Part shown: piece by piece, positions 4,991 through 29,166 of the stretch
How the letters are laid out: each line of letters begins with the position of its first letter
Position numbering within the stretch: the first letter of the stretch is position 1
Source: an uncultured Acidimicrobiales bacterium
GTDB taxonomy: Bacteria; Actinomycetota; Acidimicrobiia; Acidimicrobiales; SZUA-35
Length of the DNA stretch: 64,000 nt
Assembly: GCA_963723995.1 (NCBI GenBank)
Contig: CAVRSZ010000001.1
Location: 118,114 to 182,113 of the forward strand
Reading direction: 5' to 3'
Made by a program: the position numbers and the translations under genes
The notes under the pieces: model-generated
Told to the model about the DNA's origin: nothing
What the model saw: the letters and a program-made list of their open reading frames with translations, nothing else
The model's database searches: none

Positions 4991-5099
4991 GTGTAGCTGG
5001 CCACGGCCGGGCGCCGGTAGGCGTGGCGGTGGCGAGCGGGCAAACACCAGGGGGCCACCACCGCCGGCAGAAGGCGAGCGGCACAACACTCTCGCTCAC

Positions 5100-7988: not shown

Positions 7989-8594
7989 TTGGTGCGAGGC
8001 GCACCGGTGTTCATGGTAGGCAACGACGCGGGCGTGGTCGAGCACGATCTTGTTGGCGGGGAGCTGGTGTGCCCAGCATGTGAGGGCGGGCGATTGGGTC
8101 CGTGGGGTTGGGCTCGAATTCGGGTGCTGCGGTTGCGTGGTGTCGAGCAGCGGTGGCGTCCTCGCCGGTCACGGTGCGTCTCGTGTGGGGTGACGCATGT
8201 GTTGTTACCGGTTCGGGTGTTGTTGCGCCGTCGGGACGCTGTGGAGGTGATCGGGGCCGCAGTGGTTGCCTGGGCGGCTGGCGCGGGTCACCGGCGGATC
8301 GCCGAGGATCTGGGGGTTCCGGCCACGACAGTGCGAGGTTGGTTGCGTCGTTTCGCTTTGCGGGCTGGGTTCTTGCGTGGCCAGTTCATGGCCCTTGCCC
8401 ATCTGTTGGATCGTGATCTGGGTCGGGTCGAGCCCCGGGGTTCACCGGTGGCTGATGCGGTCGAGGCGATCGGTGTGGCGGCCTCCGCGGCGGCTCGGAG
8501 GTTTGGGCCGGGGTCGGTGTGGTGGTTCGCGTCGGGCGCGTCGGCGGGGAGGCTGCTGTCCAACACGGACTCGCCGGTCCCGCTGGCCGGTTGA
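7989..8594 (+). CDS. transposon-associated Zn-ribbon/HTH protein (DUF6431-like)
   Basis: CPACEGGRL...CVSCGVTHVLLP..., then HRRIAEDLGVPATTVRGWLRRF. From memory, this gene type precedes Mu/TniA-like transposases in actinobacteria. Confidence 0.45.
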   Translation: MVRGAPVFMVGNDAGVVEHDLVGGELVCPACEGGRLGPWGWARIRVLRLRGVEQRWRPRRSRCVSCGVTHVLLPVRVLLRRRDAVEVIGAAVVAWAAGAGHRRIAEDLGVPATTVRGWLRRFALRAGFLRGQFMALAHLLDRDLGRVEPRGSPVADAVEAIGVAASAAARRFGPGSVWWFASGASAGRLLSNTDSPVPLAG

Positions 8595-8640
8595 GCTGTC
8601 AACGTCGGTGTGATCGACCCCGACACGAGGAGGACCAAGG

Positions 8641-9036
8641 GTGGAAGACGAACGTCGACGGGACATCGCGTTGTTCCGCTATTCGCTGATCCGAGAAGCA
8701 GCGGACGCGGAGCTGAGCAAACGGGAACGAGGCCGCCTGGTCCGGCGTCTGGCTGGGCGTGAGCACGTGGTGCCCGACGGGCGGCGGGTGCGGATCGGTC
8801 GGTCGACTCTGGACCGCTGGATCCGGGACTACCGGGCCGGCGGCTATGACGCCCTGGTGCCCGAGGTTCGAGCCGGGGTGCCCTTGACGGACCCTGAGAT
8901 TCTCGACGCCGCTGTGATATCGAAACGTGAGGAGCCGAAGCGGACCGCAGCGCATGTGGCCGACGTGTTGGCCGCCAAGGACATGCACGTCAGTGCTCGG
9001 ACGTTGCAGTGGCACTTCGCCCGCCTCGGTCTCCCG
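8641..9036 (+). mobile_element. N-terminal (HTH) fragment of a Mu/TniA-type DDE transposase, 3'-truncated
   Basis: RRDIALFRYSLIREAADAELSKRERGRLVRRLAGREHVVPDGRRVRIGRSTLDRWIRDYRAGGYDALVP... The match stops near 9036, where the sequence becomes the antisense of an antiporter gene. No DDE core is present. Confidence 0.55.
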
Positions 9037-9044
9037 CAAGGCTC

Positions 9045-9654
9045 GTGGGTAGACAGCGAGACACCACACCGCAAGCACGAACAATCCGAACGCGATGCCG
9101 AACACGAGACCGAGACCTCCGGAATCACCGGTCTCGGAACCGATGATGAGGGCGAGCATGACGAGTGAGATGGTGTCGGTGATCGAGCTGGCACCGACGA
9201 TCGCGGCGACGGCCGGGTTCTTCGTCAACCCGTAGCGGCTCACCGTTGGATAGGTGATCAGCGTGAACGACGCCCACAGCGAACCGATCAACACCGCAGC
9301 CGTCGTATCGATGCCGAGCCACATCGCGACGCCGGTGCCGAGCACCAGCGGGATGAACGCCGTCAATAGCCCGAAGCCTGCCGAGATGCGCCGGAAGCGG
9401 ATGAACGAATCGATATCGAGCTGCAGGCCTGCGAGGAAGATCAAGTAGAGAATCCCGATGCTGCCCACCGATTCGAGCGTCGTAATGCTCGGCAACACAT
9501 CCAACAGGTTGGGACCGATCAGAGCACCGCCCAGCAGCAGCCCCAGCAACCCCGGCATTCGTAGCCGTGCCGCCATGAGCGACCCGAAGACCACGATCAA
9601 CGCCACGGCCGTGAAACCGAACGCCGACCCCTGCTGGACTTCGTTCCACGTCAT
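9045..9654 (-). pseudogene. 5' ~200 codons of a cation:proton antiporter (CPA2/Kef-type), truncated at the transposon junction
   Basis: MTWNEVQQGSAFGFTAVALIVVFGSLMAARLRMPGLLGLLLGGALIGPNLLDVLP...GIAFGLFVLAVWCLAVYP, after which the ORF turns into non-membrane nonsense to 8599. Confidence 0.7.
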
Positions 9655-11049: not shown

Positions 11050-12036
11050 GTGGTTCGGGTCCCGGGTTGCCGCGACGCCATCGAAATGCGACGCTGGACA
11101 AAGCAGCTACGACGTCACGGAGGGAGAGATCGCATGCCGAGCGTGATCGCACGGGCCCAACGACCGGTGGTGCGACAGATCGGGAAGCGGCTCGCCGCAG
11201 CCGACACACCCGAACAGATGCGAGCATTCATCGACCGGGTCACCACCATCCTTCTGACGCCGACCAGGGGCGTCACCCGCTCGAACGCCACGCTGGGCGG
11301 CCTCGCCAGCCTCCGGATTGAACCGAAGGCTTCTACTTCCGGCGATCGAGGCCTTCTGATGTTCCACGGCGGGGGCTATGTGTTCGGCTCGCCGTCGATG
11401 TACAAGCACCTGGCCGGGCGGATCGCCAAAGCTGCCGGTGCAACCGTACACGTGCCCTCCTATCGGCTGGCACCAGAGCACCCGCATCCAGCTGCCATCG
11501 AAGACGGACTGGCCGCGTACCGAGCGATCCTCGACGATCACGAACCCGAACGGCTGGCGGTGGGCGGCGATTCCGCCGGCGGGAACATGGCTCTCACCGT
11601 GCTGATCGCTGCTCGCGATGAAGGGCTCCCGATGCCTGCGTGCGTCCTGCTGATGAGCCCGTGGACCGATCTCACTGCGACCAGCGACAGTTGGATGACC
11701 AACGTCGACAGCGAACTTCTGATCCGCCCCGAGGCGATTCGGCGGGTGACCGGGTGGTACTGCGGCGAAAGCGACGCCGGCGACCCGCGCCTCTCACCGC
11801 TTTTCGCCGATCTCCGAGGCTTGCCGCCGATGCTTATCCAGGTCTCCGACGAGGAGATCCTCTACAGCGATAGCACCGCCCTTGCCAAAGCCGCACTCGC
11901 CGCGGATATTGACGTGCGGCTGGAGGTGGCGAACGGCATGTGGCATGTGTGGCAGCTCCAGGCCCCGATCGTGCCCGAGGCCCGCGCCTCGATCAAATCG
12001 GCCGGTGAGTTCATCCGTCGGCACACGGACCGATGA
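11050..12036 (+). CDS. alpha/beta hydrolase, hormone-sensitive-lipase-type esterase
   Basis: HGGG box LLMFHGGGYVFGSP and nucleophile GDSAGGNMAL. The true start may be ATG 11134. Confidence 0.8.
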   Translation: MVRVPGCRDAIEMRRWTKQLRRHGGRDRMPSVIARAQRPVVRQIGKRLAAADTPEQMRAFIDRVTTILLTPTRGVTRSNATLGGLASLRIEPKASTSGDRGLLMFHGGGYVFGSPSMYKHLAGRIAKAAGATVHVPSYRLAPEHPHPAAIEDGLAAYRAILDDHEPERLAVGGDSAGGNMALTVLIAARDEGLPMPACVLLMSPWTDLTATSDSWMTNVDSELLIRPEAIRRVTGWYCGESDAGDPRLSPLFADLRGLPPMLIQVSDEEILYSDSTALAKAALAADIDVRLEVANGMWHVWQLQAPIVPEARASIKSAGEFIRRHTDR

Positions 12037-13303: not shown

Positions 13304-14251
13304 GTGTCCCATCCAGCAGTGTTCAATCCAGCAGAGTTTCCCGAGCCCACGATGATTTCGGTCAATGGTGTGGAGCTCGAAGTGTTCGAAGCAGGCCAAG
13401 AGAACGCAGGACGGCCCGTCGTGCTCTGCCACGGCTGGCCGGAGCATGCCTTCGCGTGGCGCCATCAGGTGCCGGCCCTTGCCGAAGCGGGCTACCACGT
13501 CATCGTCCCGAACCAGCGAGGCTATGGCAACTCGTCTTGCCCGAGCGAAGTCACGGACTACGACATCGAGCACTTGTCGGGTGACCTCGTCGCGCTCCTC
13601 GACCACTACGGATACCAAAACGCCACCTTTGTCGGTGAAGACTGGGGCGCGATGATCGTCTGGGGGTTGACCCTCTTGCACCCAAACCGTGTGAACGGAG
13701 TGATCGCCCTGAGCGTGCCCTATCTCGACCGCGGCGACCAACCCTGGGTCGAGTTCATGGAAGAGATGCTCGGCAGCGACTACTACATGGTGCACTTCAA
13801 TCGAAAGCCGGGCGTCGCCGACGCCGTGCTCGACAAGAACACTTCCCAGTTCCTTCGTAACCTGTACCGGAAGAACCAGCCGCCGGCAGAGCCTCAGCCA
13901 GGCAACGCAATGATCAACCTCGCCGAAGCAGAGATCCCTGTCGGCGATCCCGTCATGAGCGACAGCGAACTGGCTGTCTTCGTCTCCGCCTTCGAAGCAT
14001 CAGGGTTCACGCCAAGCATCAACTGGTACCGGAACCTCGACCGCAATTGGCATCTGTTGTCGGACGTGGATCCACTCATCCAGCAGCCCGCACTCATGAT
14101 CTATGGCGACCGCGATCTTGTGGCCAGGAATGAACGGATTGCAGAGTTCGTGCCCAATGTGCAAGTGGTCAACTTGGACTGCGGCCACTGGATCTCGCAA
14201 GAACTGCCGGACGAAACAAACCAAGCGATCCTGAAGTGGCTCGAGCAGTGA
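13304..14251 (+). CDS. alpha/beta hydrolase, epoxide-hydrolase-like
   Basis: PVVLCHGWPEHAFAWRHQVPALAEAGYHVIVPNQRGYGNS...GEDWGA. Confidence 0.85.
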   Translation: MSHPAVFNPAEFPEPTMISVNGVELEVFEAGQENAGRPVVLCHGWPEHAFAWRHQVPALAEAGYHVIVPNQRGYGNSSCPSEVTDYDIEHLSGDLVALLDHYGYQNATFVGEDWGAMIVWGLTLLHPNRVNGVIALSVPYLDRGDQPWVEFMEEMLGSDYYMVHFNRKPGVADAVLDKNTSQFLRNLYRKNQPPAEPQPGNAMINLAEAEIPVGDPVMSDSELAVFVSAFEASGFTPSINWYRNLDRNWHLLSDVDPLIQQPALMIYGDRDLVARNERIAEFVPNVQVVNLDCGHWISQELPDETNQAILKWLEQ

Positions 14252-14655
14252 ACGCCGACGGCTCGCCCGGGGTTTCGGCCGATATCCGGTTTGGGGTTGC
14301 GACGCTCTCCATTCTCTTCCCGATCGGCTTGGCCTCGTTGGTCGTTGGGCTCGTGGCGCTGATCGGCGGCGGCCGGCTGGTCACGTCCCTGCCGGCTCGG
14401 CCGGATGAGAGTCCCCGCTGGACTTGCGGGGGCGTTCGGTTCTGCCGACCACTGTTGCAGGACGCGTCGCAGTCCTGTGCTCGGTGTTGGTCTTCATCCC
14501 GTTCACCAGCGGGGCGATGTTCGGCGCCCCGATCTTCTTGTTCCTCGGTGTACGCAAGGGTGATCGGGGCCTGTTGTTGGTGCTGCCCGTGCTCGTGTCG
14601 ATCGTCGTGATCGGGGTGATCGCCATTGTGGTTTGGGCGGTTCTTGTTGGGTAGA
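14252..14655 (+). pseudogene. 3' fragment of the 25187-26119 membrane-protein gene, frameshifted
   Basis: Begins directly after the hydrolase stop. It corresponds to ..NADGSPGVSADxRFGV.. through the C-terminus of the full copy. A missing G (..gctggac-ttgcggg..) splits it into two frames. Confidence 0.75.
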
Positions 14656-14699
14656 GGCGTACCGGGCACCCCATGGAGCCCGTCGGACCGGGGTGTCTG

Positions 14700-15080
14700 T
14701 CAGGCTCGGTACACGTTGACACTGTTGGCGTGATCGGCCAGTGCGCGTAGGTCCTTGAGGTCGCTGGTGAGCACAGCGCCACCGGGTTCAGCGAGTGCTA
14801 CGACGATGGCGTCAACGGCGGAACCTTGGCCGGCCAGCGCACGCAGAGCACCTGCTCGGCGGGCGAGGCGTTCGGGCAGTTCCTCGATGATGTCGCACGT
14901 CTTGAGGAACCGATGGATGTTGGCATCACTTCGTTGCCGTCCTGAGGTCGACTCGGCGAGTACGGCCGAGGGGACCGCAGGCGGCCACAAGCCGTCGCGT
15001 TTGAACACCGCTATCAGGGCAGCGGAATCTTGTCGTCGTCGGGCGAGACGGCTCACACCGCCAGAGTCGAGAACGAGCAA
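14700..15080 (-). CDS. vapC: PIN-domain toxin VapC
   Basis: MLVLDSGGVSRLA...AVLAES...AVDAIVVALAEPGGAVLTSDLKDLRAL. Lies 3 nt downstream of its antitoxin gene. Confidence 0.85.
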   Translation of the reverse strand: MLVLDSGGVSRLARRRQDSAALIAVFKRDGLWPPAVPSAVLAESTSGRQRSDANIHRFLKTCDIIEELPERLARRAGALRALAGQGSAVDAIVVALAEPGGAVLTSDLKDLRALADHANSVNVYRA

Positions 15081-15083
15081 CGC

Positions 15084-15350
15084 TCAGCCGATCCTGGCGG
15101 CGGGGGCGTTGGCCTGGATTCGTCGTGACAGCGCTTCGGCCTTGGCCAGTGCCTCGTCGGTAGGTTCACCAACATCGTCGATGAGTTCGGCCAGGTACCG
15201 GTCGGTCTCTTCAAGCAGAGCCTGATGTCGCAACTCAGCCCGCACGGCATCTTGGAGGAGTTCCGAGGGTGACAGCCCGCGTTCTTTGACTGCGTCGTAG
15301 AGTTCGTCGGGGAGGTACACCTGCATCCGTGGCATACGTCTACTATACAC
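15084..15350 (-). CDS. RHH/CopG-type antitoxin (VapB-like)
   Basis: MQVYLPDELYDAVKERGLSPSELLQDAVRAELR, a ribbon-helix-helix N-terminus. The start may be the internal Met. Confidence 0.75.
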   Translation of the reverse strand: MYSRRMPRMQVYLPDELYDAVKERGLSPSELLQDAVRAELRHQALLEETDRYLAELIDDVGEPTDEALAKAEALSRRIQANAPAARIG

Positions 15351-15638
15351 ACTCCGAGTGTCATCGAGGAGTTGTGGGGGGTGTGTCGGTCTGCTGACGG
15401 GCTGCTAACGGAAGCGCCAGGTAACCAGAATCGAGCGGCGACGTCGGCGCGGGCGATGGGCTTGGCGAGGTGGATGGGGGACTTGGCGGTGGGCGTTGTA
15501 GCGGCCGGTTCGAGGCTTGTCGGTGAGGGCTAGGGGCGGACGATGGTGACTAACCGTTTTCCCGCTGCGGATGCGGTCGCCGCAACATTCCGATGGATCG
15601 TCGGGTCGAGGTGGAGTCAGGCACAGGATCCGTGCCTG

Positions 15639-16031
15639 TCAGTAGACCTCGAAGCGGGCGTCCAGCGCCGACATGTCTTCGCGGTCTGAGGTGAGAATGA
15701 AGGTGCCCAGACCTTCCGCGACCACCGCAAGGTGGGCGTCGACTACGTCAGCGGTTCCGGATGCGGCGAGCCTGTGTCCAACGCCTACTGACTCGTCAAG
15801 GGGGTGAATGTCGAAATGGCGAAGTGCCCGGGCCAGATTCGCCTGTCGTGCCGGCTCACGCCAGACTTGGGCGAGCACGGGGTGGGTCGTGTGCAGGTCG
15901 TCGCCACGTTCGGTTGCCCGCTTGATGATGGCCCAGAGTCGAGAGTTCAGGTTCTCTCCGTCGACGATGAAAGGGCCCGCATCGATAATCAACGATCGAC
16001 TCCTTGTCGGTCGAGCACCGTGTCGGCCCAC
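15639..16031 (-). CDS. vapC: PIN-domain toxin (VapC-like)
   Basis: LIIDAGPFIV...VVDAHLAVVAEGLGTFILTSDREDMSAL. The real start is probably inside the track ORF, near the antitoxin stop. Confidence 0.75.
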   Translation of the reverse strand: MGRHGARPTRSRSLIIDAGPFIVDGENLNSRLWAIIKRATERGDDLHTTHPVLAQVWREPARQANLARALRHFDIHPLDESVGVGHRLAASGTADVVDAHLAVVAEGLGTFILTSDREDMSALDARFEVY

Positions 16032-16234
16032 TCCAGATGCTTCCGGTCGATGGGGCCTTCGTCGGCCTCCCAGGAAGCGATCATGTCGAGCATTGCCTGA
16101 CTGCGCCGGCGGCGCTTCACCTCGGCCAGGAGAGATCGCTTGATGGCCAGCTTCTTCGTGCCGTCCATCGCCACCAGCTCGGCGAGTGCCGCTTCCATCT
16201 CGTCATCGAAGTTGATCGTCGTCTTGCTGGCCAT
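15989..16234 (-). CDS. antitoxin partner of the 15639 PIN toxin
   Basis: 81 aa, immediately upstream of and overlapping the toxin. MASKTTINFDDEMEAALAELV.. is RHH-like. Confidence 0.6.
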   Translation of the reverse strand: MASKTTINFDDEMEAALAELVAMDGTKKLAIKRSLLAEVKRRRRSQAMLDMIASWEADEGPIDRKHLEWADTVLDRQGVDR

Positions 16235-16320
16235 ACAAGTATGGTACCGGACCTGTAGATCTATGGCATCAGGACGGTAGACATGGGCGCCTGGAGTGAG
16301 TCGGTATCGCGCCGTCGGGG

Positions 16321-17052
16321 ATGGCTGATGTAGGTTGGTGTGACGCCGGCACGATCGACTGGCACGAGAACCACAAGCTCCTCAAGGTCGCCTTCCCGGT
16401 CGACGTGCGGGCCTCCTTCGCCCGCCACGAGATCCAGTTCGGTCACATCGAGCGAGCGACCCATCGGAACACGAGCTGGGATGCGGCCCGATTCGAGACC
16501 TGTGCCCACACCTGGGTCGACGTCAGCGAGGACGGATTCGGCGTGGCGCTGCTCAACGACTGCAAGTATGGCCACGACATCGTGGGCAACGTGATCCGCC
16601 TCCCGCTCCTTCGGGCCCCGACCTGGCCCGATCCGGTTGCCGACCGGGGTCGCCACCGCTTCGCCTACGCCCTGTTCCCCCACGCCGGCCCGCCCACCAG
16701 CGGCCGGGTGATCCAGGAGGCGCACGCCTTCAACGCACCGCTGCGGGTGATCCCTCTGGCTGCAGGGCCAGGTGGTGTGCATCCGGCCCGGCACTCGCTG
16801 GTCGAGCCCGGCGATCCGGGTGTGGTGATCACCGCGGTCAAGGCGGCCGATGACGGCGAGGGCATGATCGTGCGGCTCCACGAGGCCTTCGGAGGGCGCC
16901 GCCGGGTGAGGTTGCGGATTCCCGGTGCCACGCAGGTCGATCGCGTCGATCTTCTGGAGCAGCCGACCGCCCACGACCCGCCGGCCGTGCTTGACGAGGC
17001 CGTCGAACTCGCTCCAAAGCCCTTCGAGCTCGTGACTCTTCGCCTCCGCTAA
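16321..17052 (+). pseudogene. C-terminal fragment of a GH38 alpha-mannosidase
   Basis: HENHKLLKVAFPVDVRASFARHEIQFGHIERATHRNTSWDAARFETCAHTWVDVSEDGFGVALLNDCKYG matches the recalled GH38 C-terminal domain. The ~700 N-terminal residues are absent. Confidence 0.65.
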
Positions 17053-17103
17053 GCCATCGGCGGCAAGGCCGTGATCTTGGCACGGGCCGGTCGATGCGTC
17101 CTG

Positions 17104-17769
17104 TCACGGGGCCGCAGTTGGGTGGCGAGAGATGGTTGCCCACGGTCGACCATCGCGAAGAATGGTGACGGAGCGGTCTGTGTCGATCAGGTCGCCTATT
17201 TCGCCCCATCGGTCGCTCAACTGGGACTCGTCGAACGCATCGACGCCTGGTGTGCCGATCTCGGCGAGGACCGCGGTCATGGTCGCGGCACGTGCTTCCC
17301 GCTCGGCTTCGGCGTCGTCAGGATCGACGCGGCGTTCATCGAGCAGCCAGTCGATGGCCCGGCACTCACCGGCGGCGTTGCTGTACTCGAACCATCGTTG
17401 GCGCAGGTCGGGGAACTCATACAGGGTGCTGCGGAAGCGGCCGAAGGCGCCGCGCCCTTCGAGCGCTCGCGCCAGTAGATCGCACGCCCTGGCGTCGGCG
17501 ACCGACTCGGCGAACTCGACCATGTCTCGGTAGGCGTGGCGCGATCCGATTGAATCGATCGGGACCAAGCCTCGTTCGTATGGGTCGTCTTCGTCCTCTG
17601 CGTCCATGATGTACGAGTTGGGGAAGCCGATCTCGACCTGACCGTTTGTCGGGTCGTACCACCAGCTGGTCTCAACGCTGTTGTCTCCCAGCGCTTCGGC
17701 GAGTCCGGCGAGATCGATGTCGGCGATCGACCGCGTCGAACGCTCGTCGTCTGAGGCTGCATGTCGCAT
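17104..17769 (-). CDS. UPF0158-family protein with C-terminal extension
   Basis: WWYDPTNGQVEI...LVPIDSIGSRHAYRDMVEFAESV...ALEGRGAFGRFRSTL...WFEY, the recalled UPF0158 pattern. An extra ~70 aa tail ends ..RSVTILRDGRPWATI. Confidence 0.6.
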   Translation of the reverse strand: MRHAASDDERSTRSIADIDLAGLAEALGDNSVETSWWYDPTNGQVEIGFPNSYIMDAEDEDDPYERGLVPIDSIGSRHAYRDMVEFAESVADARACDLLARALEGRGAFGRFRSTLYEFPDLRQRWFEYSNAAGECRAIDWLLDERRVDPDDAEAEREARAATMTAVLAEIGTPGVDAFDESQLSDRWGEIGDLIDTDRSVTILRDGRPWATISRHPTAAP

Positions 17770-17786
17770 GGCACCATTATGAACCA

Positions 17787-17920
17787 GCGTGGACGTGAGA
17801 CTCGACGGTGGTGACCCAGGGGTGTCGCGGCCGCCAGATGCGGCCCTAGGGTGCTGGTTACCGCAAGACGTCGCGGGAGCCCGAACGGCGGAGGTTGTTC
17901 AAGTCCCCTCCGACACACTC
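17787..17920. repeat. conserved intergenic element, copy 1 (boxes CGTGGnCG..CTCG / CCAGGGGTGTCGC / GGAGGTnnGTTCAAGTCCCCTCCGAC)
   Basis: Shares three ordered sequence boxes, with similar spacing, with 28988-29096. It lies just 5' (minus sense) of the UPF0158 gene start. Confidence 0.45.
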
Positions 17921-17939
17921 GTCAGTACACGCTGGGTTC

Positions 17940-18353
17940 TCAGACGGCCACGACATCGATGAGGTCGTCGAGGGCCCTGAGGTCGTGAGGATTGCGGGTG
18001 AAGAGCGGGAGATTCTCAGCCAGAGCAGTGGCAGCGATGAGAAGGTCCACTGCTCGGGTGCCACGTGGCTTGCGTCCAGTGGTCGCGACTGCGGAGAAGA
18101 CTCTGCCGTAGGCGCGGGCCGCGTCGGCACCGAACGGAAGCGGGTCGAAGACGGCCTCGGCCCGCTGGAGCCGGTCCTGGCGGCGGCTGCGTTCGGCTGG
18201 GTCGTCGGTGGCGTGTGGACCGGCGGCCAGTTCGGCCAGGGTGAGGGCGCTGATGGCAACCTCGAGGGGGAGTGAGCTGACGGGGATACGTTCGAGATCG
18301 ATGACGACCGACGTGTCCAGCAGTCCTCGTCCGGGTCGGCTGGTGCTAGGCAC
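17940..18353 (-). CDS. vapC: PIN-domain toxin VapC
   Basis: GLLDTSVVIDLE...LTLAELAAG...AVDLLIAATALAENLPLFTRNPHDL. Confidence 0.85.
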   Translation of the reverse strand: MPSTSRPGRGLLDTSVVIDLERIPVSSLPLEVAISALTLAELAAGPHATDDPAERSRRQDRLQRAEAVFDPLPFGADAARAYGRVFSAVATTGRKPRGTRAVDLLIAATALAENLPLFTRNPHDLRALDDLIDVVAV

Positions 18354-18600
18354 GGGGGGCGAAGTGCTGGTCGGCGATCTGGTCGAGGTCGTGGCTGAGT
18401 TGATCGAAGTTGACGGGGGCGGCGGTTCGGAAGAGCTCGATCGCGGCCTCGGTTCGGACGAAGCGGTGACGGCGCAGCGGGGTCAGCTCGCCGATGGGTA
18501 CACCGTTGCGAGTGACAATGAAGGTCTCGCCCTCGGTGAGGGCGCGCATGATCCGCCCGCTGTCGTTTCGAAGCTCTCGCTGGCTGATCTCGCTACTCAT
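18346..18600 (-). CDS. Phd/YefM-type antitoxin
   Basis: An internal ATG at 18600 gives MSSEISQRELRNDSGRIMRALTEGETFIVTRNGVPIGELTP. The gene overlaps vapC by 8 nt. Confidence 0.75.
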   Translation of the reverse strand: MSSEISQRELRNDSGRIMRALTEGETFIVTRNGVPIGELTPLRRHRFVRTEAAIELFRTAAPVNFDQLSHDLDQIADQHFAPRA

Positions 18601-18720
18601 GACACCGAGTGTAGCACCATGTGCTACGGCGGCGACGAGGGTTTCTACGGCGCGCCTTCGAAGCGGTGCATGCGGTACTCCTCCCCGTCGCAGTGCATGC
18701 ATTTGTGCTAACCTGAGCGT

Positions 18721-18915
18721 ATGCGGAGTACAAGTGTGAGGATTGACGTTGGGACCCATCGGGAGCTCAAGCGGCTCGCTGCTTCATTGGGCGTGAGCGT
18801 AGGTGACACTGTTGCTCTCGCAGTCCGCCGTCTTCGCCAGGATCGCATCGGGGCTGACCTTGCTCACGACCTGACTGCCGAAGAGGTTGATTGGCTCGAT
18901 GCTGACCTCGGGTGA
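18721..18915 (+). CDS. RHH antitoxin (MazE-like)
   Basis: SVRIDVGTHRELKRLAASLGVSVGDTVALAVRRL. Overlaps the downstream mazF start. Confidence 0.65.
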   Translation: MRSTSVRIDVGTHRELKRLAASLGVSVGDTVALAVRRLRQDRIGADLAHDLTAEEVDWLDADLG

Positions 18916-19243
18916 TGTCGTCGACTTGGATTTTGGTGTTCCAGCGGGCAGAGAAGCGGGGTTTCGTCATCCTGCGATCGTGGTGACGGCGCAGCGAGTT
19001 TTGGACGCAGAACCGAGTGTTGTGCAGGTTGTGCCGCTCACTTCGACGCTTCGGGGATTCGCCTCCGAGGTCGAGATCGATGTCGACGATATGAATGGTC
19101 TCGAGCAGGCATCGGCTGCTCAGTGCCAACACATTCGGGCGGTGGCGGCCGGGCGGATCGAACGGACGAGGGGCAACGTTGGGTCGGCCGTGTTGGTGGA
19201 GGTTCGGGAGTTGCTCGGCCTAATTCTCGATGTGGCGGGGTGA
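18899..19243 (+). CDS. mazF: MazF/PemK family toxin
   Basis: GDVVDLDFGVPAGREAGFRHPAIVVTAQ...VVQVVPLTSTLRGFASEVEI...RIERTRGNVG..LLGLILDV. Confidence 0.8.
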   Translation: MLTSGDVVDLDFGVPAGREAGFRHPAIVVTAQRVLDAEPSVVQVVPLTSTLRGFASEVEIDVDDMNGLEQASAAQCQHIRAVAAGRIERTRGNVGSAVLVEVRELLGLILDVAG

Positions 19244-19913
19244 GGCCGGCGGTGTCATGCTGCAAATGGTTTGCGAACGGTATCTGGCGGCCGAGGGCGT
19301 TAGGGGGCGGCTGGACGATCGCTCGAGTGCATTGGTTGCTCGATAATTCGACATTGCGGAACGCATCCCATGCCTCGATCTCGACCTTGGCCGCCTCGGG
19401 AAGCAGGTCGGCGCACGCCTCCTCGGCGGCGTGCCAAGCCGCATCCAGCTCCATCCACTCCCCATCGGTCAGCTCGACGTCACGGCCACCGTCGAACATC
19501 TCGTCGAGTTCGGCCTGCCCGATGTCGACCTCGACATCGGGCTCGGTCCACAGGTCGCCGAGCTGGTCGGCCATGCACACCTCGAAGGCGCCGACGTGGT
19601 CGGCAGGCTTGCCGTCCGAGCTCTCGCCGATGTCCGCGTCCCCGGTTGCGTCCACCGGGCGGGGAGTGGCGTAGGCCGGGTTGTCCTGGGCGCCTGCGAT
19701 GGCGCGGACGCCGGTCACCGCTGCCGGTAGCGTCACCATGCCGACCAGTGCGCCGATCAGCGCCGGGCGTCGACGCCGGGTCCGGATGTCGGGGGTATCG
19801 ATGGGTTCCTCGTCCTCATCACTGGTTGTGGTTGGGGGACGGTCCGATGGTGCCTGACCGTTGCTGAGACCGACCTGAGAACCTGAGAACGCTCTCAGCT
19901 GGTTTGACGGCAA
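19038..19913 (-). CDS. hypothetical acidic protein with twin-arginine-like signal; 3' end uncertain
   Basis: TRRRRPALIGALVGMVTLPAAVTGVRAIAGAQD, followed by a D/E-rich region. The last ~200 nt of the ORF run antisense through mazF and look non-genic. Confidence 0.4.
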   Translation of the reverse strand: MPSNQLRAFSGSQVGLSNGQAPSDRPPTTTSDEDEEPIDTPDIRTRRRRPALIGALVGMVTLPAAVTGVRAIAGAQDNPAYATPRPVDATGDADIGESSDGKPADHVGAFEVCMADQLGDLWTEPDVEVDIGQAELDEMFDGGRDVELTDGEWMELDAAWHAAEEACADLLPEAAKVEIEAWDAFRNVELSSNQCTRAIVQPPPNALGRQIPFANHLQHDTAGLTPPHRELGRATPEPPPTRPTQRCPSSVRSARPPPPECVGTEQPMPARDHSYRRHRSRPRRRIPEASK

Positions 19914-19931
19914 GCAGGCACACTCGAAGTC

Positions 19932-19991
19932 ATGCGCATCCTTGTGGTCGACGACGAGGAACGCCTAGCCCGGTCGATCGCGCGGGGCCTA
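19932..19991 (+). pseudogene. 20-codon stub of an OmpR-type response-regulator receiver domain
   Basis: ATG at 19932 gives MRILVVDDEERLARSIARGL, a canonical receiver N-terminus. It then switches abruptly to dehalogenase-like sequence in another frame. Confidence 0.5.
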
Positions 19992-20440
19992 TCACCTTCT
20001 TCGGCCAGGACTGGGGTGGTCTCATCGGCCTGCGGCTGGTCACCGCCCAACCGGACCGGTTCGCTCAGGTTGCGGTAGGCAACACCGGGCTGCCAGCTGG
20101 ATACGGACGGCCGTCGGAAGCTTTCCTGCGGTGGCAGCAGTTCTCCCAGACAAGCCCGGTGTTCCCGGTCGGCGACATCATCAACGGGGCCACCACCAGC
20201 GACTTGGCCCCCGAGGTGATCGCGGCCTACGACGCCCCCTTCGCTGATGATCGAGGTGACCCGGAGCCGCCGTCTCGAACCCGAGACAAGCCAGGTTTGC
20301 GCCGCTCGGCCGGCCGACCCCGGGGTCGGGGGGAGCTCCAACGAGTGGCGGGCCGTTGTGCCCACCGCACTGCGGGGCTGGCTGGACAACTCCACATCGA
20401 GACCGTGGCTCGCCGGCACCGAGCCACCTTCGCACGACCT
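19984..20440 (+). pseudogene. internal fragment of a haloalkane-dehalogenase-type alpha/beta hydrolase, frameshifted
   Basis: PITFFGQDWGGLIGLRLVTAQPDRFAQVAVGNTGLPAG...AFLRWQQFSQTSPVFPVGDIINGATTSDLAPEVIAAYDAPF. The N-terminus is missing and the continuation (..NEWRAV..LRGW..) is in another frame. Confidence 0.6.
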
Positions 20441-20445
20441 CGACT

Positions 20446-20775
20446 TCAGCCCGCAAGGCCGAAGAACACGAGGATCGCTCGGCCGAGTCTGACAAGTTCA
20501 TCGTCACCAAGCCTGCCGATGCGCTCGCCAAGCTTGGAGCGGGGCACGGTCGTGATCCTGTCGACCATGAGGCTGCAGGGCTCTTGTAGTCCGTTCACCT
20601 CGTCGGGCTTGATCCGGAGCCGGAACAGCGGTGCATCGGTGGGGTCGGTCGTAAAGGCGCAGATCGTCACCGAGTCTGTTGCGTCGAAACGATCGTCCTG
20701 GACGATTGCAACGGGCCCTGGCTTCCCGGCGTACCCGGTGCCGGCCGCCGCGGTCCAGATCTCGCCGCGCCTCAA
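20446..20775 (-). CDS. mazF: MazF/PemK family toxin
   Basis: MRRGEIWTAAAGTGYAGKPGPVAIVQDDRFDATDSVTICAFTT...MVDRITTVPRSKLGERIGRL. Confidence 0.85.
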   Translation of the reverse strand: MRRGEIWTAAAGTGYAGKPGPVAIVQDDRFDATDSVTICAFTTDPTDAPLFRLRIKPDEVNGLQEPCSLMVDRITTVPRSKLGERIGRLGDDELVRLGRAILVFFGLAG

Positions 20776-20993
20776 TCGTCGTCCAGGCTGACTGCGTCGA
20801 TGAACGCCTGGTCGTCAGCTGCATGCTTGCTTGCAGCAACCGCTGCAGACTGGCGGTGGGCCTCGCTCTCGAACTCCGGTGACCGCACGTCCGGTACCCA
20901 AATCTGCACCGGACGAAGGCCCTGTGCACGAAGGCGACGGCGGTGCTCGCGCACTCGCTTCTTGACCCCGGCGTCATCCTGCGGAGCAGCCAT
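20772..20993 (-). CDS. antitoxin (DUF3018/MazE-like)
   Basis: KKRVREHRRRLRAQGLRPVQIWVPDVRSPEF..EAHRQS. Has a 4-nt overlap with the toxin. Confidence 0.65.
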   Translation of the reverse strand: MAAPQDDAGVKKRVREHRRRLRAQGLRPVQIWVPDVRSPEFESEAHRQSAAVAASKHAADDQAFIDAVSLDDD

Positions 20994-21206
20994 ACTCCCA
21001 TGTTACATGTAACGAATGGCCAGTCAACTCCCTCGCCCCAATCGGCCGTGACTAGGTGATCGGCCGCTCGCCCCTTCGACACCCGAGTTGAACCCTGTGA
21101 GATGTCGATCATCCAAGGCGTCCACCGGCGCATGGGTCTGTGTGGATTGCGAGCGGCCAGGACGTGTTCACCGATCGGCGGTGGGACCGGGGGTGCCCCT
21201 GCAGGC

Positions 21207-22428
21207 TCAGATGCCGGCGTCGGGGCGGGTCTGGCCGAGCTCGAACAGTTGCTGATGGTAGCTGACGTTGGCCGGGTCCTCGGGATCCTTGGTCTTGCCT
21301 GGCAGGAGCGAGGCGAACAGGCCCATCTCAGTGGTCAAGATGTAGGCGGTGACCACGGCGACTGCCGCCGGCGCAGCGGTGATCGGTCCAACGCTGACGG
21401 TGAGAACGGCGAGGAGGGCTATCGAGAACGGGGCCTTGATCGACGCCCCCGGTACGGCGACAAGAAGGCACGACAGGGTCAACGCGATCGGCAGGTCCGG
21501 GATGATGACGTGGGTGGCGACACCGGCAGCGCCGCCGATGACGAGCGTCGGCATGACCGGCCCCCCCGATGAAGCCGGTGGCCAGGCTCGTCGCCATCGC
21601 CACGATCTTTGCCAACACAATCCCGACGAGCACCAACGCCCCCAGCTCGTCGGCCTGGTTGATCATGTCCGGCAGCTGCGCCTTGCCCGACCCCAGTGTC
21701 AGCGGGAAGAACACGGCGATGAGCCCGACGGCGAGACCCCCGACCCCGGCACGCACGACGGTGTTCGGGATCCGCGTAAACCAGGTTCGCAAGACGAAAA
21801 CCGTCGCGCCCAGCAGCCGAGACAGGAACGCGCCCACCACACCAAGCAGCACGGCGACACCGAAGTGCCAGTACTCGATCTCGTAAGACGGCACGGCGAA
21901 GACATCGACGAAGGTGGCGCCGACAAACGTGAACACCACAAAGAAACCAAAGACCGACGCCACCAGACTGGGCGCCACCGTTCGGTAGTAGCGCTCATGG
22001 CGCTCCGGTGGGTTCAGCTCAGTCACCAACAGCGTGGCCAGGACCGGCGACGTGAGCAGGCCGCCGATCGCCCCGTTGATGCCGACCAGCGTGTTGAGCT
22101 TGCGCGTCTCGCCCTCGGCGCCGACCCGGTCCGAGAACCACTCGCCGACCGCGCCACCGGAGCGGACCCCGGCATCGAAGGGCCCCAGGCTTGCGCCGCC
22201 GACGAGAGAGACCCACGAGACGAGGATCATCGGTATAGCCGAGCGTTGATCGACGTGGCGGACGGCGATGCTCTCGAGCGCGCCGTTCGGCTCGATGGGC
22301 ACCTGCAGCCAGCGCCGCAGCAGCCCAACGAGAAGACCTGCTCCGACGGTGAGGGCAATCCATCGTCGAAGAATCCGGGAGGTTCTCGGTGGACGGCCAC
22401 CTAGCGGTCGATATCGGGCGCCGCGCAT
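21207..22428 (-). pseudogene. ClC-type chloride/fluoride channel gene with +1 frameshift in a G7 run
   Basis: The 21328-22428 frame carries ClC TM sequence up to ..ATGFIGG. Removing one G of the coding-strand G7 (plus-strand C7 at 21561-21567) joins it to ..PVMPTLVIGGAAGVATHV... in frame 21207-21620, restoring a GxFxP-like motif. Confidence 0.75.
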
Positions 22429-22499
22429 GGGTGGCCACGTGCGGTCGTGCTACTGCCACTGCCGGCGACGGGCGCCCTGCGGTGTGGTAGAACCGCACG

Positions 22500-23300
22500 A
22501 TGCCGACGTTTGCGGGTTCTGAGGGAGTGGTTCACTACGAGCGCTGGATCCCTGACGAGCCGCCAGTGCGAATCGTCATCATCGTGCACGGCTACGCCGA
22601 ATACGCCGCCCGCTACAGACACCTGGCCGAGGCGCTCACCGCTCACGGCTCGATCGTGTACGGCGAGGACCACCCCGGTCACGGACGCAGTGACGGGGAA
22701 CGAGCACTCATTGTCGACTTCGAACACGTGGTCGACGACCTCCGCGCACTGGTCGACATCGCCGTCGGCGAGCACCCCCGACTGCCGGTGGTGATGATCG
22801 GACACTCGATGGGTGGCCTACTCGCCGCCCGGTTTGCGCAGCGCTATACCGAACAGCTGGCGGGAATCGTGTTCTTGGGCGCAGTCATCGGTGATTGGCA
22901 TTGGGCCCGGGAGGTGCTGGAACGGCCGGAGCTGCCCCCGACGGCGTCCGATTTCTCCGGCATGTCCCGAGACGAGGCGGCCGTCGACGCCTACACAACC
23001 GATCCGCTCATCTACCACGGTCCCTACAAACGGCCTCTGCTCGAGGCGGAGGTTGTGGCACTCGATCGTTTTCAGGCTCACGTCGGCGCGTTGACGCTGC
23101 CGGTACTGTTCTGCCATGGGACCGAGGACCCCTTCGTCGACTATCGCACCTCACTGGCAGCAGTCGAGTTGATGCCCAGTGAGGACAAGACGATCAGGCT
23201 CTACGACGGAGCCCGCCACGAGCTCGTGAACGAGACCAACCGTGACGAAGTGATCGCCGACATCGTGGACTTCGTCGAGCCTCGTTCCTTCCTGAGATAG
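22500..23300 (+). CDS. alpha/beta hydrolase (lysophospholipase / monoacylglycerol-lipase-like)
   Basis: VIIVHGYAEYAARYRHLAEAL...VVMIGHSMGGLLAARFA...CHGTEDPFVD...ARHEL. Confidence 0.85.
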   Translation: MPTFAGSEGVVHYERWIPDEPPVRIVIIVHGYAEYAARYRHLAEALTAHGSIVYGEDHPGHGRSDGERALIVDFEHVVDDLRALVDIAVGEHPRLPVVMIGHSMGGLLAARFAQRYTEQLAGIVFLGAVIGDWHWAREVLERPELPPTASDFSGMSRDEAAVDAYTTDPLIYHGPYKRPLLEAEVVALDRFQAHVGALTLPVLFCHGTEDPFVDYRTSLAAVELMPSEDKTIRLYDGARHELVNETNRDEVIADIVDFVEPRSFLR

Positions 23301-23301
23301 C

Positions 23302-23345
23302 TTCCATGGAATATAACGAAACGGGTTAGAATAGATTCCATGGAA
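23302..23345. promoter_or_regulatory. two copies of the palindrome TTCCATGGAA (MarR box candidates)
   Basis: Copies at 23302-23311 and 23336-23345, centres 34 bp apart. The second covers the MarR ATG at 23340. Confidence 0.5.
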
Positions 23346-23819
23346 TTCAAAAGGAACGCGTGCGGGACTCCGCCGGTCGACCTGGCCGTTCTGTTCAGCG
23401 ACCTGGTCCGGATGGAAACCGACCTGTGGCATCTCATCGACCAGCGGCTGCGCCGGGAACACGAGGTCCCGCTGTCGTGGTTCGAGCCGATGCAGGTCAT
23501 GGACCGCGTCCGCGACTGTCGAGTTGCCGACATCGCCGAGGCGTTGTCGATCACGGTGGGCGGCGCGAGCAAGCTGGTCGATCGCATCGAGCACGCTGGC
23601 TGGTGCGGCCGTTCGCCGAACCCGAACGACGCTCGATCGTCTGTGGTCACCCTGACCCAAGCCGGGCGTCGCGTGCTCGACGCTGCGCAGGGCTCGTTCT
23701 GCGACGAACTGGCTGCCCGGCTCGCAGGGGCGGTCTGCGCCGAGCGGCTCGCCTCGTTCGCGACAACCGTGCAAGACCTGCGACACCACATCGCAAACCG
23801 GCAAGAGAGTGCAACATGA
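23340..23819 (+). CDS. MarR family transcriptional regulator
   Basis: Winged-helix segment RVADIAEALSITVGGASKLVDRIEHAGWCGRSPNPNDARSSVVTLTQAGRRVL. Confidence 0.85.
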   Translation: MEFKRNACGTPPVDLAVLFSDLVRMETDLWHLIDQRLRREHEVPLSWFEPMQVMDRVRDCRVADIAEALSITVGGASKLVDRIEHAGWCGRSPNPNDARSSVVTLTQAGRRVLDAAQGSFCDELAARLAGAVCAERLASFATTVQDLRHHIANRQESAT

Positions 23820-24805
23820 GCAAGACTTCAGCTTCGATGCGGGCCGCCGTGCTCGACGCACCCGGCCCGCCCGAAGCATTGCAGATCCGTGAGGTGCCCA
23901 TGCCGGTGCCTGGGCCCGGTCAGGTGCTGATCAAGGTCGAGGCATTCGGGCTCAACCGGTCGGAGCTCCACACTCGGCTCGGCCTTGCCGACGGGGTCAC
24001 GTTCCCTCGGGTGCTCGGCATCGAAGCGACAGGAGTCGTGGCCGAGTGTCCAGGCGGCGAGCTCGCCCCCGGCACACAGGTCGCGGCGTTGATGGGCGGC
24101 ATGGGGCGGACGTTCGACGGCGGGTATGCCGAGTTCACTTGTGTGCCGGTCCAACAAACGGTTCCGTTCACGAGCGATCTCGATTGGGCCACGCTCGGTG
24201 CTGTACCGGAGATGCTGCAGACCTCCTATGGGTCGCTCACCGTCGGCCTCGACGCCCAACCGGGCCAGTCGATCCTCATCCGCGGCGGTACCTCCTCGGT
24301 CGGTATGGCGACCGCCGTGCTCGCCCGGCGGCTCGGTATGACCGTTCTGTCCACCACACGCAACCCCGACCGTGCCGACGTGCTGCGGGAGATCGGCGTG
24401 CAGCACCCGTTGGTGGACGACGCTAACGTCGCCGCCCAGGTCCGTGACCGCATCCCCGACGGCGTCGACACCGCTCTCGAGCTCGTTGGCACCCCTACGC
24501 TGCCCGACACACTCCGAGCGACACGGGTGCACGGAGTCGTCTGCTTCACCGGCATGCTGTCGAACCAATGGACCGTGCCGGACTTCTACCCAATCGAGTA
24601 CCTGCCCCGGGGCGTTCGCCTCACCGCCTACGGAGGCGACGCCAGCGACCTGCCGTCCGGCGTGCTGCAGGAGTTCCTCGACGCGGTCGCTGCCGGCGAA
24701 GCCCAGGTGCCGATTCACAGGACATACCGCCTCGACGAGATCGCCGAGGCCCACGCAGACATGGAAGCCGACCGCGCCACCGGGAAACTCGTCGTACAGC
24801 CGTGA
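23816..24805 (+). CDS. zinc-type alcohol dehydrogenase / quinone oxidoreductase (MDR family)
   Basis: The ATG overlaps the MarR stop (ATGA). MRAAVLDAPGPPEALQIREVPMPVPGPGQVLIKVEAFGLNRSE...ILIRGGTSSVGMA...ATGKLVV. Confidence 0.85.
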   Translation: MSKTSASMRAAVLDAPGPPEALQIREVPMPVPGPGQVLIKVEAFGLNRSELHTRLGLADGVTFPRVLGIEATGVVAECPGGELAPGTQVAALMGGMGRTFDGGYAEFTCVPVQQTVPFTSDLDWATLGAVPEMLQTSYGSLTVGLDAQPGQSILIRGGTSSVGMATAVLARRLGMTVLSTTRNPDRADVLREIGVQHPLVDDANVAAQVRDRIPDGVDTALELVGTPTLPDTLRATRVHGVVCFTGMLSNQWTVPDFYPIEYLPRGVRLTAYGGDASDLPSGVLQEFLDAVAAGEAQVPIHRTYRLDEIAEAHADMEADRATGKLVVQP

Positions 24806-25186
24806 TCAATCCCCACCGAATGAGCCTTGCATGAGCGCCGACGGCGCTCGTGGCGCCCGACTTCGAAGGGCAGCCGTTCTCGATCGGCCGAGTTTCGCAT
24901 TCCGCCTAAGTTGAGAGTGTGCTCCCTCCGGGTTAAAGGTCTGGTGCTGTTGGCCGGCGGCACCGGGCACTCGATCGATGAACTCCTGGCCGAGATGGCC
25001 GCCACTTGGTAGCCGGGCACCACAGGTCGGGCGCAGGTTGCTGTGGGCGAGTTCGAGGGCGGCCCAAGTACGGGATTTCGAAGAAGATCGAGACGTTGGA
25101 CCCTGGTGGCGGCGACACGGATATGGCAGAAAGAAGGTGGAGACAGCCGACTTCCCGGTCGGTGACCCGGCGAAGTCGGTGACCTA

Positions 25187-26119
25187 GTGAAAAAGGTGGT
25201 TCCGGTGACGCGAAGAACCAAGGTGATTGGGTTCGGAACCGGGCTGGTGGTGGTGGGGCTGGTCCTCGTCTACAACTTCGGTCTCACATCGTTGGGGCAT
25301 TCTCCCGTTTTGCGCGAGTACAACTTGACCGATCCGTTGACGATCGAGGTGTCGTCCCGCGCCGTGGTCACTGACGACGTCGAGCTGCTGCGCTGGAACA
25401 CCATGCCCGAGTTCGTCTCGCTGCCCGATGATGTGCGGGTGGAGGGTGTTGCGGCGGGGTCCGAAACGCTGTTCATGGGCATCGCTCCTGCCGATGCGGT
25501 TGCCGGGTACCTCGACGGCGTCGCCCACGATGAGATCACCGACTGGGAATCCCGCGCCGACGACATCACCGATGTGGTGTACACCAGGAACGAGGGCGCC
25601 ACCGATCCCGCCGCTCCAGGGACCGAGGATTTCTGGGTGGCGTCGGTGAGCGGCAGTGGTGAACAGGCCCTCGAGTGGACGATCGAGGGCGGGGAGTGGG
25701 CCCTGGTGATCATGAACGCCGACGGCTCGCCCGGGGTTTCGGCCGATGTCCGGTTTGGGGTTCCGACGCTCTCCATTCTCTTCCCTATCGGCTTGGCCTC
25801 GTTGGTCGTGGGGCTCGTGGCGCTGGTCGGCGGCGGCCGGCTGGTCACGTCCCTGCCGGCTCGGCCGGATGAGACCCCCCGCTGGACGTTGCGGGGGCGT
25901 TCGGTTCTGCCGACCACTGTTGCAGGAGGTGTCGCAGTCCTGTGCGCAGTGTTGGTCTTCATCCCGTTCACCAGCGGGGCGATGTTCGGCGCCCCGATCT
26001 TCTTGTTCCTCGCCGTACGCAAGGGTGATCGGGGCCTGTTGTTGGTGCTGCCCGTGCTCGTGTCGATCCTCCCGATCGGGCTCATCGCCATGCTTGTTTG
26101 GGCGATTCTCGGTGGGTAG
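25187..26119 (+). CDS. membrane-anchored hypothetical protein (N-terminal TM, ~170-aa extracytoplasmic domain, C-terminal multi-TM block)
   Basis: The hydrophobicity pattern is clear. Its 3' third is the part duplicated at 14252-14655. Confidence 0.65.
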   Translation: MKKVVPVTRRTKVIGFGTGLVVVGLVLVYNFGLTSLGHSPVLREYNLTDPLTIEVSSRAVVTDDVELLRWNTMPEFVSLPDDVRVEGVAAGSETLFMGIAPADAVAGYLDGVAHDEITDWESRADDITDVVYTRNEGATDPAAPGTEDFWVASVSGSGEQALEWTIEGGEWALVIMNADGSPGVSADVRFGVPTLSILFPIGLASLVVGLVALVGGGRLVTSLPARPDETPRWTLRGRSVLPTTVAGGVAVLCAVLVFIPFTSGAMFGAPIFLFLAVRKGDRGLLLVLPVLVSILPIGLIAMLVWAILGG

Positions 26120-29096: not shown

Positions 29097-29166
29097 TTCG
29101 GTAGAGGCCGTGGTCAAACGCTCTGCGCCCGGCGAGGTTTCGAATCGGGGGTGGTGATTCTTGAGC

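Follow-up and report, generated by a model that had tools for sequence, protein, structure and literature searches.

How did five complete type II toxin-antitoxin (TA) pairs come to stand within 6.8 kb of a bacterial chromosome, with pieces of unrelated genes between them? The question is raised by positions 14249-21000, referred to below as the island, of a stretch of contig CAVRSZ010000001.1 from an uncultured Acidimicrobiales bacterium; the window is the whole stretch of DNA that we analyzed, 64,000 nucleotides (nt) in length. The island holds three VapBC and two MazEF pairs, all with uninterrupted reading frames. The region is probably a hot spot of accretion and erosion of type II TA modules, built by illegitimate recombination in a high-turnover accessory part of the chromosome, and the island belongs to a wider zone, from about 4.6 to 30.5 kb, in which genes decay and turn over. 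The observations expected of such a spot are the packing of five pairs into 6.8 kb, presence/absence polymorphism among related loci (L084, L092, L093 and L089, described below), and two broken modules, namely an eroded copy of vapBC-1 and a dead mazF. Read in this way, the region is a compact record of selfish TA modules reshaping a chromosome with no transposase or integrase seen. Three steps are readable in it: the copying of a module with part of its neighbor, the collapse of the older copy to an antitoxin::toxin fusion, and TA-bearing insertions and deletions among strains. A pattern quantified mainly in Gammaproteobacteria would thereby be extended to an uncultured, probably actinobacterial lineage, which best hits would place in the class Acidimicrobiia.

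In type II systems a labile antitoxin represses its operon and neutralizes a stable ribonuclease toxin. The toxins of the VapC family are nucleases with a PIN domain, and those of the MazF family are endoribonucleases with sequence specificity. The TA genes of the island are the following (aa, amino acids).

14700-15080, minus strand: vapC-1, a PIN-domain toxin of 126 aa with acidic residues D5, E43, D89 and D106
15084-15350, minus strand: vapB-1, an antitoxin of 88 aa, RHH-like at its N-terminus, lying upstream of vapC-1 with a gap of 3 nt
15639-15992, minus strand: vapC-2, a PIN-subfamily toxin of 117 aa with a TTG start
15989-16234, minus strand: vapB-2, a putative antitoxin of 81 aa, assigned from its operon position and 4-nt overlap
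17940-18353, minus strand: vapC-3, a canonical PIN toxin of 137 aa (Pfam PIN, 2e-11)
18346-18600, minus strand: antitoxin 3, a Phd/YefM-like protein of 84 aa, overlapping vapC-3 by 8 nt
18721-18915, plus strand: mazE-4, a putative antitoxin of 64 aa, assigned by operon position only, with no Pfam match
18887-19243, plus strand: mazF-4, a PemK/MazF toxin of 118 aa (Pfam PemK_toxin, 7e-15), overlapping mazE-4 by 29 nt
20446-20775, minus strand: mazF-5, a PemK/MazF toxin of 109 aa (Pfam PemK_toxin, 9e-18)
20772-20993, minus strand: mazE-5, an antitoxin of 73 aa (Pfam MazE-like, 6e-27), overlapping mazF-5 by 4 nt

The first-pass annotation of this DNA had listed five complete type II pairs here, and all of them are present, at or a few bases from where it had placed them and with intact open reading frames (ORFs). 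Toxins 1-3 are PIN proteins with conserved acidic residues, and each has a small antitoxin gene that abuts or overlaps it upstream (a 3-nt gap in pair 1, overlaps of 4 and 8 nt in pairs 2 and 3), which is the arrangement of the VapBC class. VapC-1 matches the Pfam PIN profile with an E-value of 4.8e-4, under the gathering cut-off, and aligns with the PIN subfamily of VapC-2 at an hhalign probability of 98.2%. VapB-1 and antitoxin 3 give weak matches to RHH_5 (E 1.6e-3) and PhdYeFM (E 1.9e-4), respectively. VapC-2 and VapB-2 have no Pfam match of their own, and VapB-2 has no NCBIfam match either; NCBIfam added nothing for pairs 1, 2 and 4. The start of vapC-2 and the stop of vapB-2 share a canonical 4-nt TTGA overlap. 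A full HMMER search yielded 601 homologs of VapC-2, the Pfam PIN profile is matched by 41 of 61 aligned homologs, and the family aligns with VapC-3 at an hhalign probability of 88.6%. The invariant residues of the VapC-2 family are D4, Q42, D82, D85 and D103, the invariant glutamine replacing the usual second acidic residue of PIN proteins in this subfamily. PDB sequence searches with toxin 1, toxin 2 and the toxin-2 profile returned chance matches only.

Toxins 4 and 5 show the PemK/MazF fold and have an overlapping antitoxin gene upstream, as in the MazEF class, with antitoxin 4 placed there by position only. The mazE-4 gene is divergent from pair 3, and their common spacer carries a 20-nt near-palindrome at 18643-18662. 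A promoter scan found a promoter-like site at 21027-21000, ahead of mazE-5. Judged from the sequence, the modules may be active and are probably addictive.

The orientations of the five pairs along the island are minus, minus, minus, plus and minus. By a tally of coordinates, TA genes occupy ∼44% of the 6.75 kb, gene fragments ∼31% and a UPF0158-family gene ∼10%. Two further TA loci that had been noted outside the island were also found, at 7101-7636 (PemK, 1.8e-11) and at 28343-28970 (PIN, 1e-9), and seven intact pairs lie between 7.1 and 29 kb. A mazF gene reported as dead was located near 4682-5095 on the minus strand; similarity to MazF-4 (phmmer E 4e-11) is found in the ∼40 residues at its C-terminus, and its N-terminal part is scrambled across frames. 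No TA was found at 32-64 kb of the window with the window's own TA proteins as queries.

The clearest view of how a module reached the island is given by VapBC-1, which has an eroded twin farther along the window. The features involved are as follows.

13304-14251, plus strand: epoxide-hydrolase-type alpha/beta hydrolase, the left flank of the island (Pfam Abhydrolase_1, 1e-31)
14249-15439, no strand assigned: partial duplicate of 25713-26550, 1,191 bp comprising a membrane-gene tail, intact vapBC-1 and 89 bp upstream of vapB-1
14249-14654, plus strand: membrane-protein pseudogene fragment, the last ∼135 codons (406 bp), with a 1-nt frameshifting deletion at ∼14423
25187-26119, plus strand: intact membrane-protein gene of 310 aa, the source of the tail at 14249-14654
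26165-26461, minus strand: eroded vapBC-1 copy, a VapB(1-64)::VapC(93-126) fusion ORF of 98 aa

When the window was compared with itself by BLAST, 14249-14805 aligned with 25713-26270 at 95.0% identity and 15158-15439 with 26271-26550 without a mismatch. The membrane-protein tail at 14249-14654 had been noticed before, and it is real. Because the 26-kb locus holds the whole gene and the island only its end, we read the tail as part of a duplicate that travelled with VapBC-1 from a locus 11.5 kb away, and not as a piece left by a local deletion. The earlier proposal of repeated TA insertion with deletion of flanking genes fits most junctions but not this one, where the tail came with the module as a 1.19-kb duplicate.

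The point of entry lies in the 3' end of the hydrolase gene. Among 16 homologs of the hydrolase, 14 end 3-5 residues past a WL[EDK][QR] motif, typically as ...WLEQQDAT before the stop, and the window gene ends as ...WLEQ. Since the homologs run on past WLEQ and the duplicate homology begins at 14249, the insertion appears to have clipped the last ∼4 hydrolase codons and to have brought a new stop, TGA (14249-14251). The left junction of the island could thus be placed at the hydrolase end, but the island, whose borders the first-pass annotation had proposed to define, is not one unit with two borders.

The older copy of the module was reduced to the fusion ORF by a 354-nt in-frame deletion with an imperfect 13-nt direct repeat at its ends, and the product is without the catalytic part of the toxin and without the C-terminus of the antitoxin. 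The fusion keeps the RHH-like antitoxin N-terminus and an intact promoter region. Its putative role might be to repress the intact vapBC-1 copy still. When relatives serve as outgroups, 10 and 9 derived changes are assigned to the two tail copies, and from these similar counts it follows that the duplication is not very recent.

VapBC-1 was thus copied with 406 bp of its neighbor into the hydrolase 3' end, and the older copy was then inactivated by the in-frame deletion; in the mechanism that we propose, the identical VapB-1 supplied by the new copy would have allowed the loss of the old toxin gene. More generally, TA modules would act as autonomous selfish units that land in permissive accessory DNA, or get copied within the chromosome, through illegitimate recombination independent of mobile elements. 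Their junctions would cut neighboring genes or drag slices of them along, with non-functional remnants between intact TA operons as the result, and the modules themselves would be lost by deletion. The remaining fragments of the island would have arisen by deletions that were linked to insertion or came later.

The copied and then eroded VapBC-1 is the most interesting detail of the region, although it represents no new kind of system. It can be speculated that TA operons of this lineage spread in the chromosome without a mobile element in just this manner, by copy-and-paste with a slice of the neighbor, after which the identical antitoxin permits deletion of the old toxin; we regard this generalization as rather doubtful. 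If it is true, each fragment in the island records the previous address of the adjoining TA pair, as VapBC-1 shows directly, and the pieces of the GH38, acidic-protein and dehalogenase genes described next have intact parents elsewhere, each beside an eroded TA. The locus is in any case a test case for the question of whether the antitoxin of a second copy permits loss of the first toxin.

Almost everything between the pairs had been called debris in the first-pass annotation. Remnants of at least six genes are indeed found there, but one gene, of the UPF0158 family, is apparently intact. Besides the membrane-gene tail, the features between the pairs are the following.

16349-17052, plus strand: C-terminal remnant of a GH38 alpha-mannosidase, ∼234 of roughly 1000 codons, with no frameshift or internal stop
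17104-17769, minus strand: apparently intact UPF0158-family gene of 221 aa (Pfam UPF0158, 2e-7)
19359-19913, minus strand: remnant of an acidic repeat protein, membrane-anchored or secreted, with ∼100 C-terminal codons gone
19932-19990, plus strand: possible response-regulator receiver stub, ∼20 N-terminal codons (MRILVVDDE...)
19991-20251, plus strand: internal piece of a hydrolase of the haloalkane-dehalogenase type, covering residues 118-204 of 306
20334-20416, plus strand: tail of a DUF1330-like gene, the last ∼27 codons, with an internal frameshift and the stop lost

A six-frame Pfam search of 14200-21199 detected only the GH38 C-terminal domains, UPF0158 and the TA domains. As had been noted, the GH38 gene is represented by its C-terminal part only, which covers positions 110-205 of 206 of the Glyco_hydro_38C profile and Glyco_hydro38C2, the terminal beta-sandwich. 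Homology to two related loci, L081 and L082, begins abruptly at 16349-16354, and the N-terminal 672 aa have no match anywhere in the window. The aa identity of the remnant is 68% with L081; with L082 it is ∼67% by local tblastx and 75% by BLASTP. In L082 (Logan SRR33263696), the nearest of the GH38 relatives, an unrelated MazEF pair stands at 1543-2102, directly after the GH38 3' end.

The ORF at 19038-19913 had been described as running with its 3' end antisense into mazF, and this is what we observed. Its homologs P0122-P0124 (298-334 aa) align only up to ...EIEAWDAF, at ∼19359, and the rest is non-homologous readthrough to 19038, antisense to mazF-4. The adjoining fusion of a response-regulator stub to a dehalogenase fragment was borne out in its second half. 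The dehalogenase fragment shows 79% aa identity to a gene at 4578-5498 of L006, an Acidimicrobiales metagenome-assembled genome (MAG), and both of its ends are sharp. The five best PDB matches of the stub are all receiver domains, but their E-values of 0.4-1.2 are not significant, and a response-regulator identity of 19932-19990 is plausible on this basis. The DUF1330-like tail shares 16 of 17 residues with the C-terminal end of the ORF at 5495-5908 of L006, the gene after the dehalogenase, which we take to be DUF1330-like. The two genes are adjacent and intact in L006, and the pieces in the island look like the leftover of this two-gene block after at least two deletions. Sharp truncations next to TA operons are thus seen in the GH38 gene, in the gene of the acidic protein and in the dehalogenase/DUF1330 operon.

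The island was further compared with L084, a 2,065-bp short-read metagenome contig of the Joint Genome Institute (JGI) from a close strain. Positions 662-2065 of L084 align with positions 20425-19045 of the window at 96.7% identity, or ∼98% when only substitutions are counted (25 substitutions in 1381 nt, together with two in-frame repeat indels and one 1-nt indel). L084 carries the same truncation of the acidic ORF, whose counterpart there is 93% identical, as well as the stub and the dehalogenase and DUF1330-like remnants. Its positions 1-558 align with 25484-24909 of the window at 89.8%. Everything between the two aligned segments of the window is absent from L084, which has ∼100 nt of other sequence instead:

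20426-24908, no strand assigned: strain-variable block of 4.5 kb with mazEF-5, a CLC channel, a lipase-type hydrolase, a MarR regulator and a zinc-type dehydrogenase

The two neighboring segments of L084 thus differ in their identity to the window, ∼98% (substitutions only) versus 89.8%, and this step suggests recombination between strains at the island edge.

The same comparison bears on the state of the debris. Substitutions between L084 and the truncated acidic ORF fall 3/4/1 at codon positions 1/2/3, with no third-position bias; the ATG of the stub reads AGG in L084; the stop of the DUF1330-like gene is kept as TGA in L084 and reads CGA in the window; and the membrane tail is frameshifted. 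These four observations suggest that the debris is under relaxed selection.

A contig assembled from a metagenome may contain chimeric joins and indel errors, and these could in principle produce broken genes of this kind. The source is such a contig, the break in the CLC gene falls exactly on a C7 homopolymer (21561-21567), and split genes occur in related MAGs, for example GH38 in L081. However, L084 reproduces four fragment junctions across 1.4 kb, and an artefact is unlikely for the parts that it covers because it is an independent short-read contig; at the other junctions one is possible. Moreover, the missing gene parts are found in none of the frames and are not merely frame-shifted, and the duplicate copies are 5% different with derived changes on both, unlike collapsed or chimeric repeats. 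We consider an assembly or sequencing artefact highly improbable as the origin of the island.

Variation in TA content is also seen among more distant relatives. A metagenome scan with the membrane protein gave 15 loci, and in all of them similarity to the window ends at the membrane-gene stop codon. Downstream of the membrane gene, L092 has a VapBC-3-like pair (68% toxin and 58% antitoxin aa identity) and HigBA, and L093 has a VapBC-2-family pair; L089, L090, L098 and L087 have glgX, a short-chain dehydrogenase or other genes, and no TA. Since the downstream content varies in this way among relatives, the TA families of the island pass through a single hot spot in populations of relatives. 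In L092, the TA cluster of the VapBC-3-like pair and HigBA is followed at ∼2830-2915 by sequence with a tRNA-like translation, which would be a possible landmark for integration and has no counterpart in the window.

These comparisons also bear on a second suggestion of the first-pass annotation, a TA-stabilized graveyard, in which addictive modules make deletions lethal and trapped junk accumulates. Several distances agree with it: 115 nt separate vapB-2 from the GH38 breakpoint upstream of it, ∼115 nt lie between the mazF-4 stop and the end of the acidic-protein homology, and 30 nt between the mazF-5 stop and the end of the DUF1330-like tail. The same debris is kept at ∼98% identity in the second strain, and the TA pair that eroded, at 26165-26461, is the one with an identical second copy. 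Yet the close strain is without 4.5 kb that include mazEF-5, the TA content of the hot spot varies among relatives, one mazF (4682-5095) is dead and one VapBC copy is eroded. Retention of debris at ∼2% divergence needs no special explanation, and in Photorhabdus TA systems do not conserve their neighborhoods (PMC13617665). The suggestion is thus poorly supported. Because strains differ in TA content, a graveyard is unlikely as the main cause; because deletions stop just short of intact operons, its effect is possible as a minor contributor.

Accretion and erosion by illegitimate recombination must also be set against the arrival of the pairs together, as cargo of a plasmid, integrative and conjugative element (ICE), transposon or integron that later lost its mobility genes and its ends. 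Many proteobacterial and actinobacterial plasmids carry annotated mazEF operons with 66-70% nt identity to mazEF-5, which is the only island pair that resembles plasmid genes; in addition, a remnant of an insertion sequence (IS) lies at 7989-9168, 5 kb upstream. Against this stands the absence of mobility functions, in line with the first-pass annotation, which had seen no integrase, attC or IS boundary in the island. The six-frame Pfam search of 14200-21199 found no integrase, transposase, resolvase or relaxase, the island has no meaningful direct, inverted or flanking terminal repeats, and a scan of it for attC-like RYYYAAC...GTTRRRY pairs within 40-150 nt was negative. The window contains no tRNA and no Rfam RNA family, and a phage collection gave no match to the island. 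The k-mer check proposed earlier was run, and the composition proved native: the tetranucleotide profile of the island correlates with that of the rest of the window at r = 0.975, and its GC content is 65.3% versus 62-70% elsewhere (∼65% G+C for the window overall). The modules also point in mixed directions, the fragments belong to ordinary host genes, one with an intact parent 11 kb off and two intact in L006, and the VapBC-3-like and VapBC-2-family pairs stand at different loci in relatives. Delivery as mobile-element cargo is therefore quite unlikely.

Three more specific candidates were rejected on the same tests. A chromosomal integron was dismissed in view of the lack of attC and integrase and the mixed orientations, and foreign origin as an acquired genomic island in view of native composition with no tRNA, integrase border or flanking repeats. 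Carriage by a transposon or IS, for example of the Tn3 family, was rejected on finding no transposase, resolvase, terminal repeats or res-like palindromes in the island.

Some observations weigh against a hot spot built by accretion and erosion. An arrival route can be read for one of the five pairs, VapBC-1. Within its duplicate, the vapB half has 0 differences in 282 nt and the adjoining 556 nt are ∼5% divergent; the identical half needs an extra event, which suggests, for instance, a recent gene conversion. The GH38 remnant is unframeshifted over 234 codons and has kept a strong codon bias, and it could be very recent or still expressed. The only close-strain contig over the island, L084, covers the debris and 199 nt of mazF-4. 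Finally, the source is a metagenome-derived contig, and most junctions are supported by that contig alone.

Three known types of TA cluster can be compared with the island. Many TA loci of Mycobacterium tuberculosis are located in horizontally acquired islands, and its TA-rich genomic islands were reportedly described by Ramage, Connolly and Cox in PLoS Genet in 2009. Both cases have dense VapBC and MazEF clusters in an actinobacterial chromosome; however, the island described here is native in composition and is interleaved with gene remnants rather than with intact island genes. The TA cassettes of sedentary chromosomal integrons (e.g. in Vibrio), said to have been treated in Sci Adv in 2024, are similar in the tight packing of many pairs and in the variable array, and their proposed role is to guard the array against large deletions. 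In contrast to such promoter-less cassettes, the pairs described here have no integrase or attC, are in mixed orientation and are separated by pieces of host genes.

The closest resemblance is to the TA spots of Photorhabdus (Belot, Payelleville, Jurenas, Rocha, Van Melderen, Mol Biol Evol 2026; PMC13617665), where TA pairs co-localize in small intervals of high turnover, nearly identical duplicates of a pair are found with no mobility genes, pairs are frequently eroded by deletion or by loss of the toxin, and TA neighborhoods are not stabilized in the long term. The island shares with these spots its clustered type II pairs with few other genes, duplicates, presence/absence variation, erosion and unstabilized neighbors. 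It differs from them in phylum, in its families (VapBC and MazEF versus mostly ParE/RelE) and in having no Tn3-like res sites or palindromes at the junctions. Furthermore, its duplication carried a slice of a neighboring gene, and the older copy was reduced to an antitoxin::toxin fusion that is in frame.

A scan of genome contigs with the flanking hydrolase gave 80 loci from many phyla, with the enzyme 76-81% conserved; L041, L010 and L006 were informative. In L041, a distant MAG ('Vin_3'), a WYL-regulator and the hydrolase are followed ∼440 bp on by a mazEF pair at 11386-11981, which is 67% identical to MazEF-5 and opposite in orientation to the window. This adjacency may be ancestral or may reflect an independent insertion. 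Inversion and simple-insertion scenarios were tried for the L041 layout, and none fits all junctions; L041 is too distant (∼75% nt identity) to serve as the ancestor.

The UPF0158 gene is not a recognized TA or defense component (no PADLOC match), and a metagenome scan with its protein gave no match. Ten island proteins matched no known defense-system model of PADLOC, and the island was accordingly not classed as an anti-phage defense island, a result with which abortive-infection activity by the TA pairs is still compatible. A 1,218-aa query in which all eleven island proteins were joined also returned no match, probably since large unrelated proteins took up the candidate list.

The remaining observations concern other damaged genes of the window. 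The IS remnant at 7989-9168 consists of a DUF6431/HTH_23 ORF (7989-8594) and a transposase-type HTH fragment (8641-9168). It overlaps and truncates a Na+/H+ exchanger gene at 8599-9654 on the minus strand, whose profile match breaks off at position 199 of 375. The gene for the CLC-type chloride channel (21207-22428, minus strand) is frameshifted at its C7 homopolymer, which could be a sequencing error or a slip-strand mutation, and the ORF downstream of the break (21207-21620) has no Pfam match. The zinc-type alcohol dehydrogenase ORF at 29694-30515 on the minus strand overlaps a TetR-family ORF at 29114-29902 and has an ADH_zinc_N match that ends at position 47 of 129; it is probably truncated or frameshifted.

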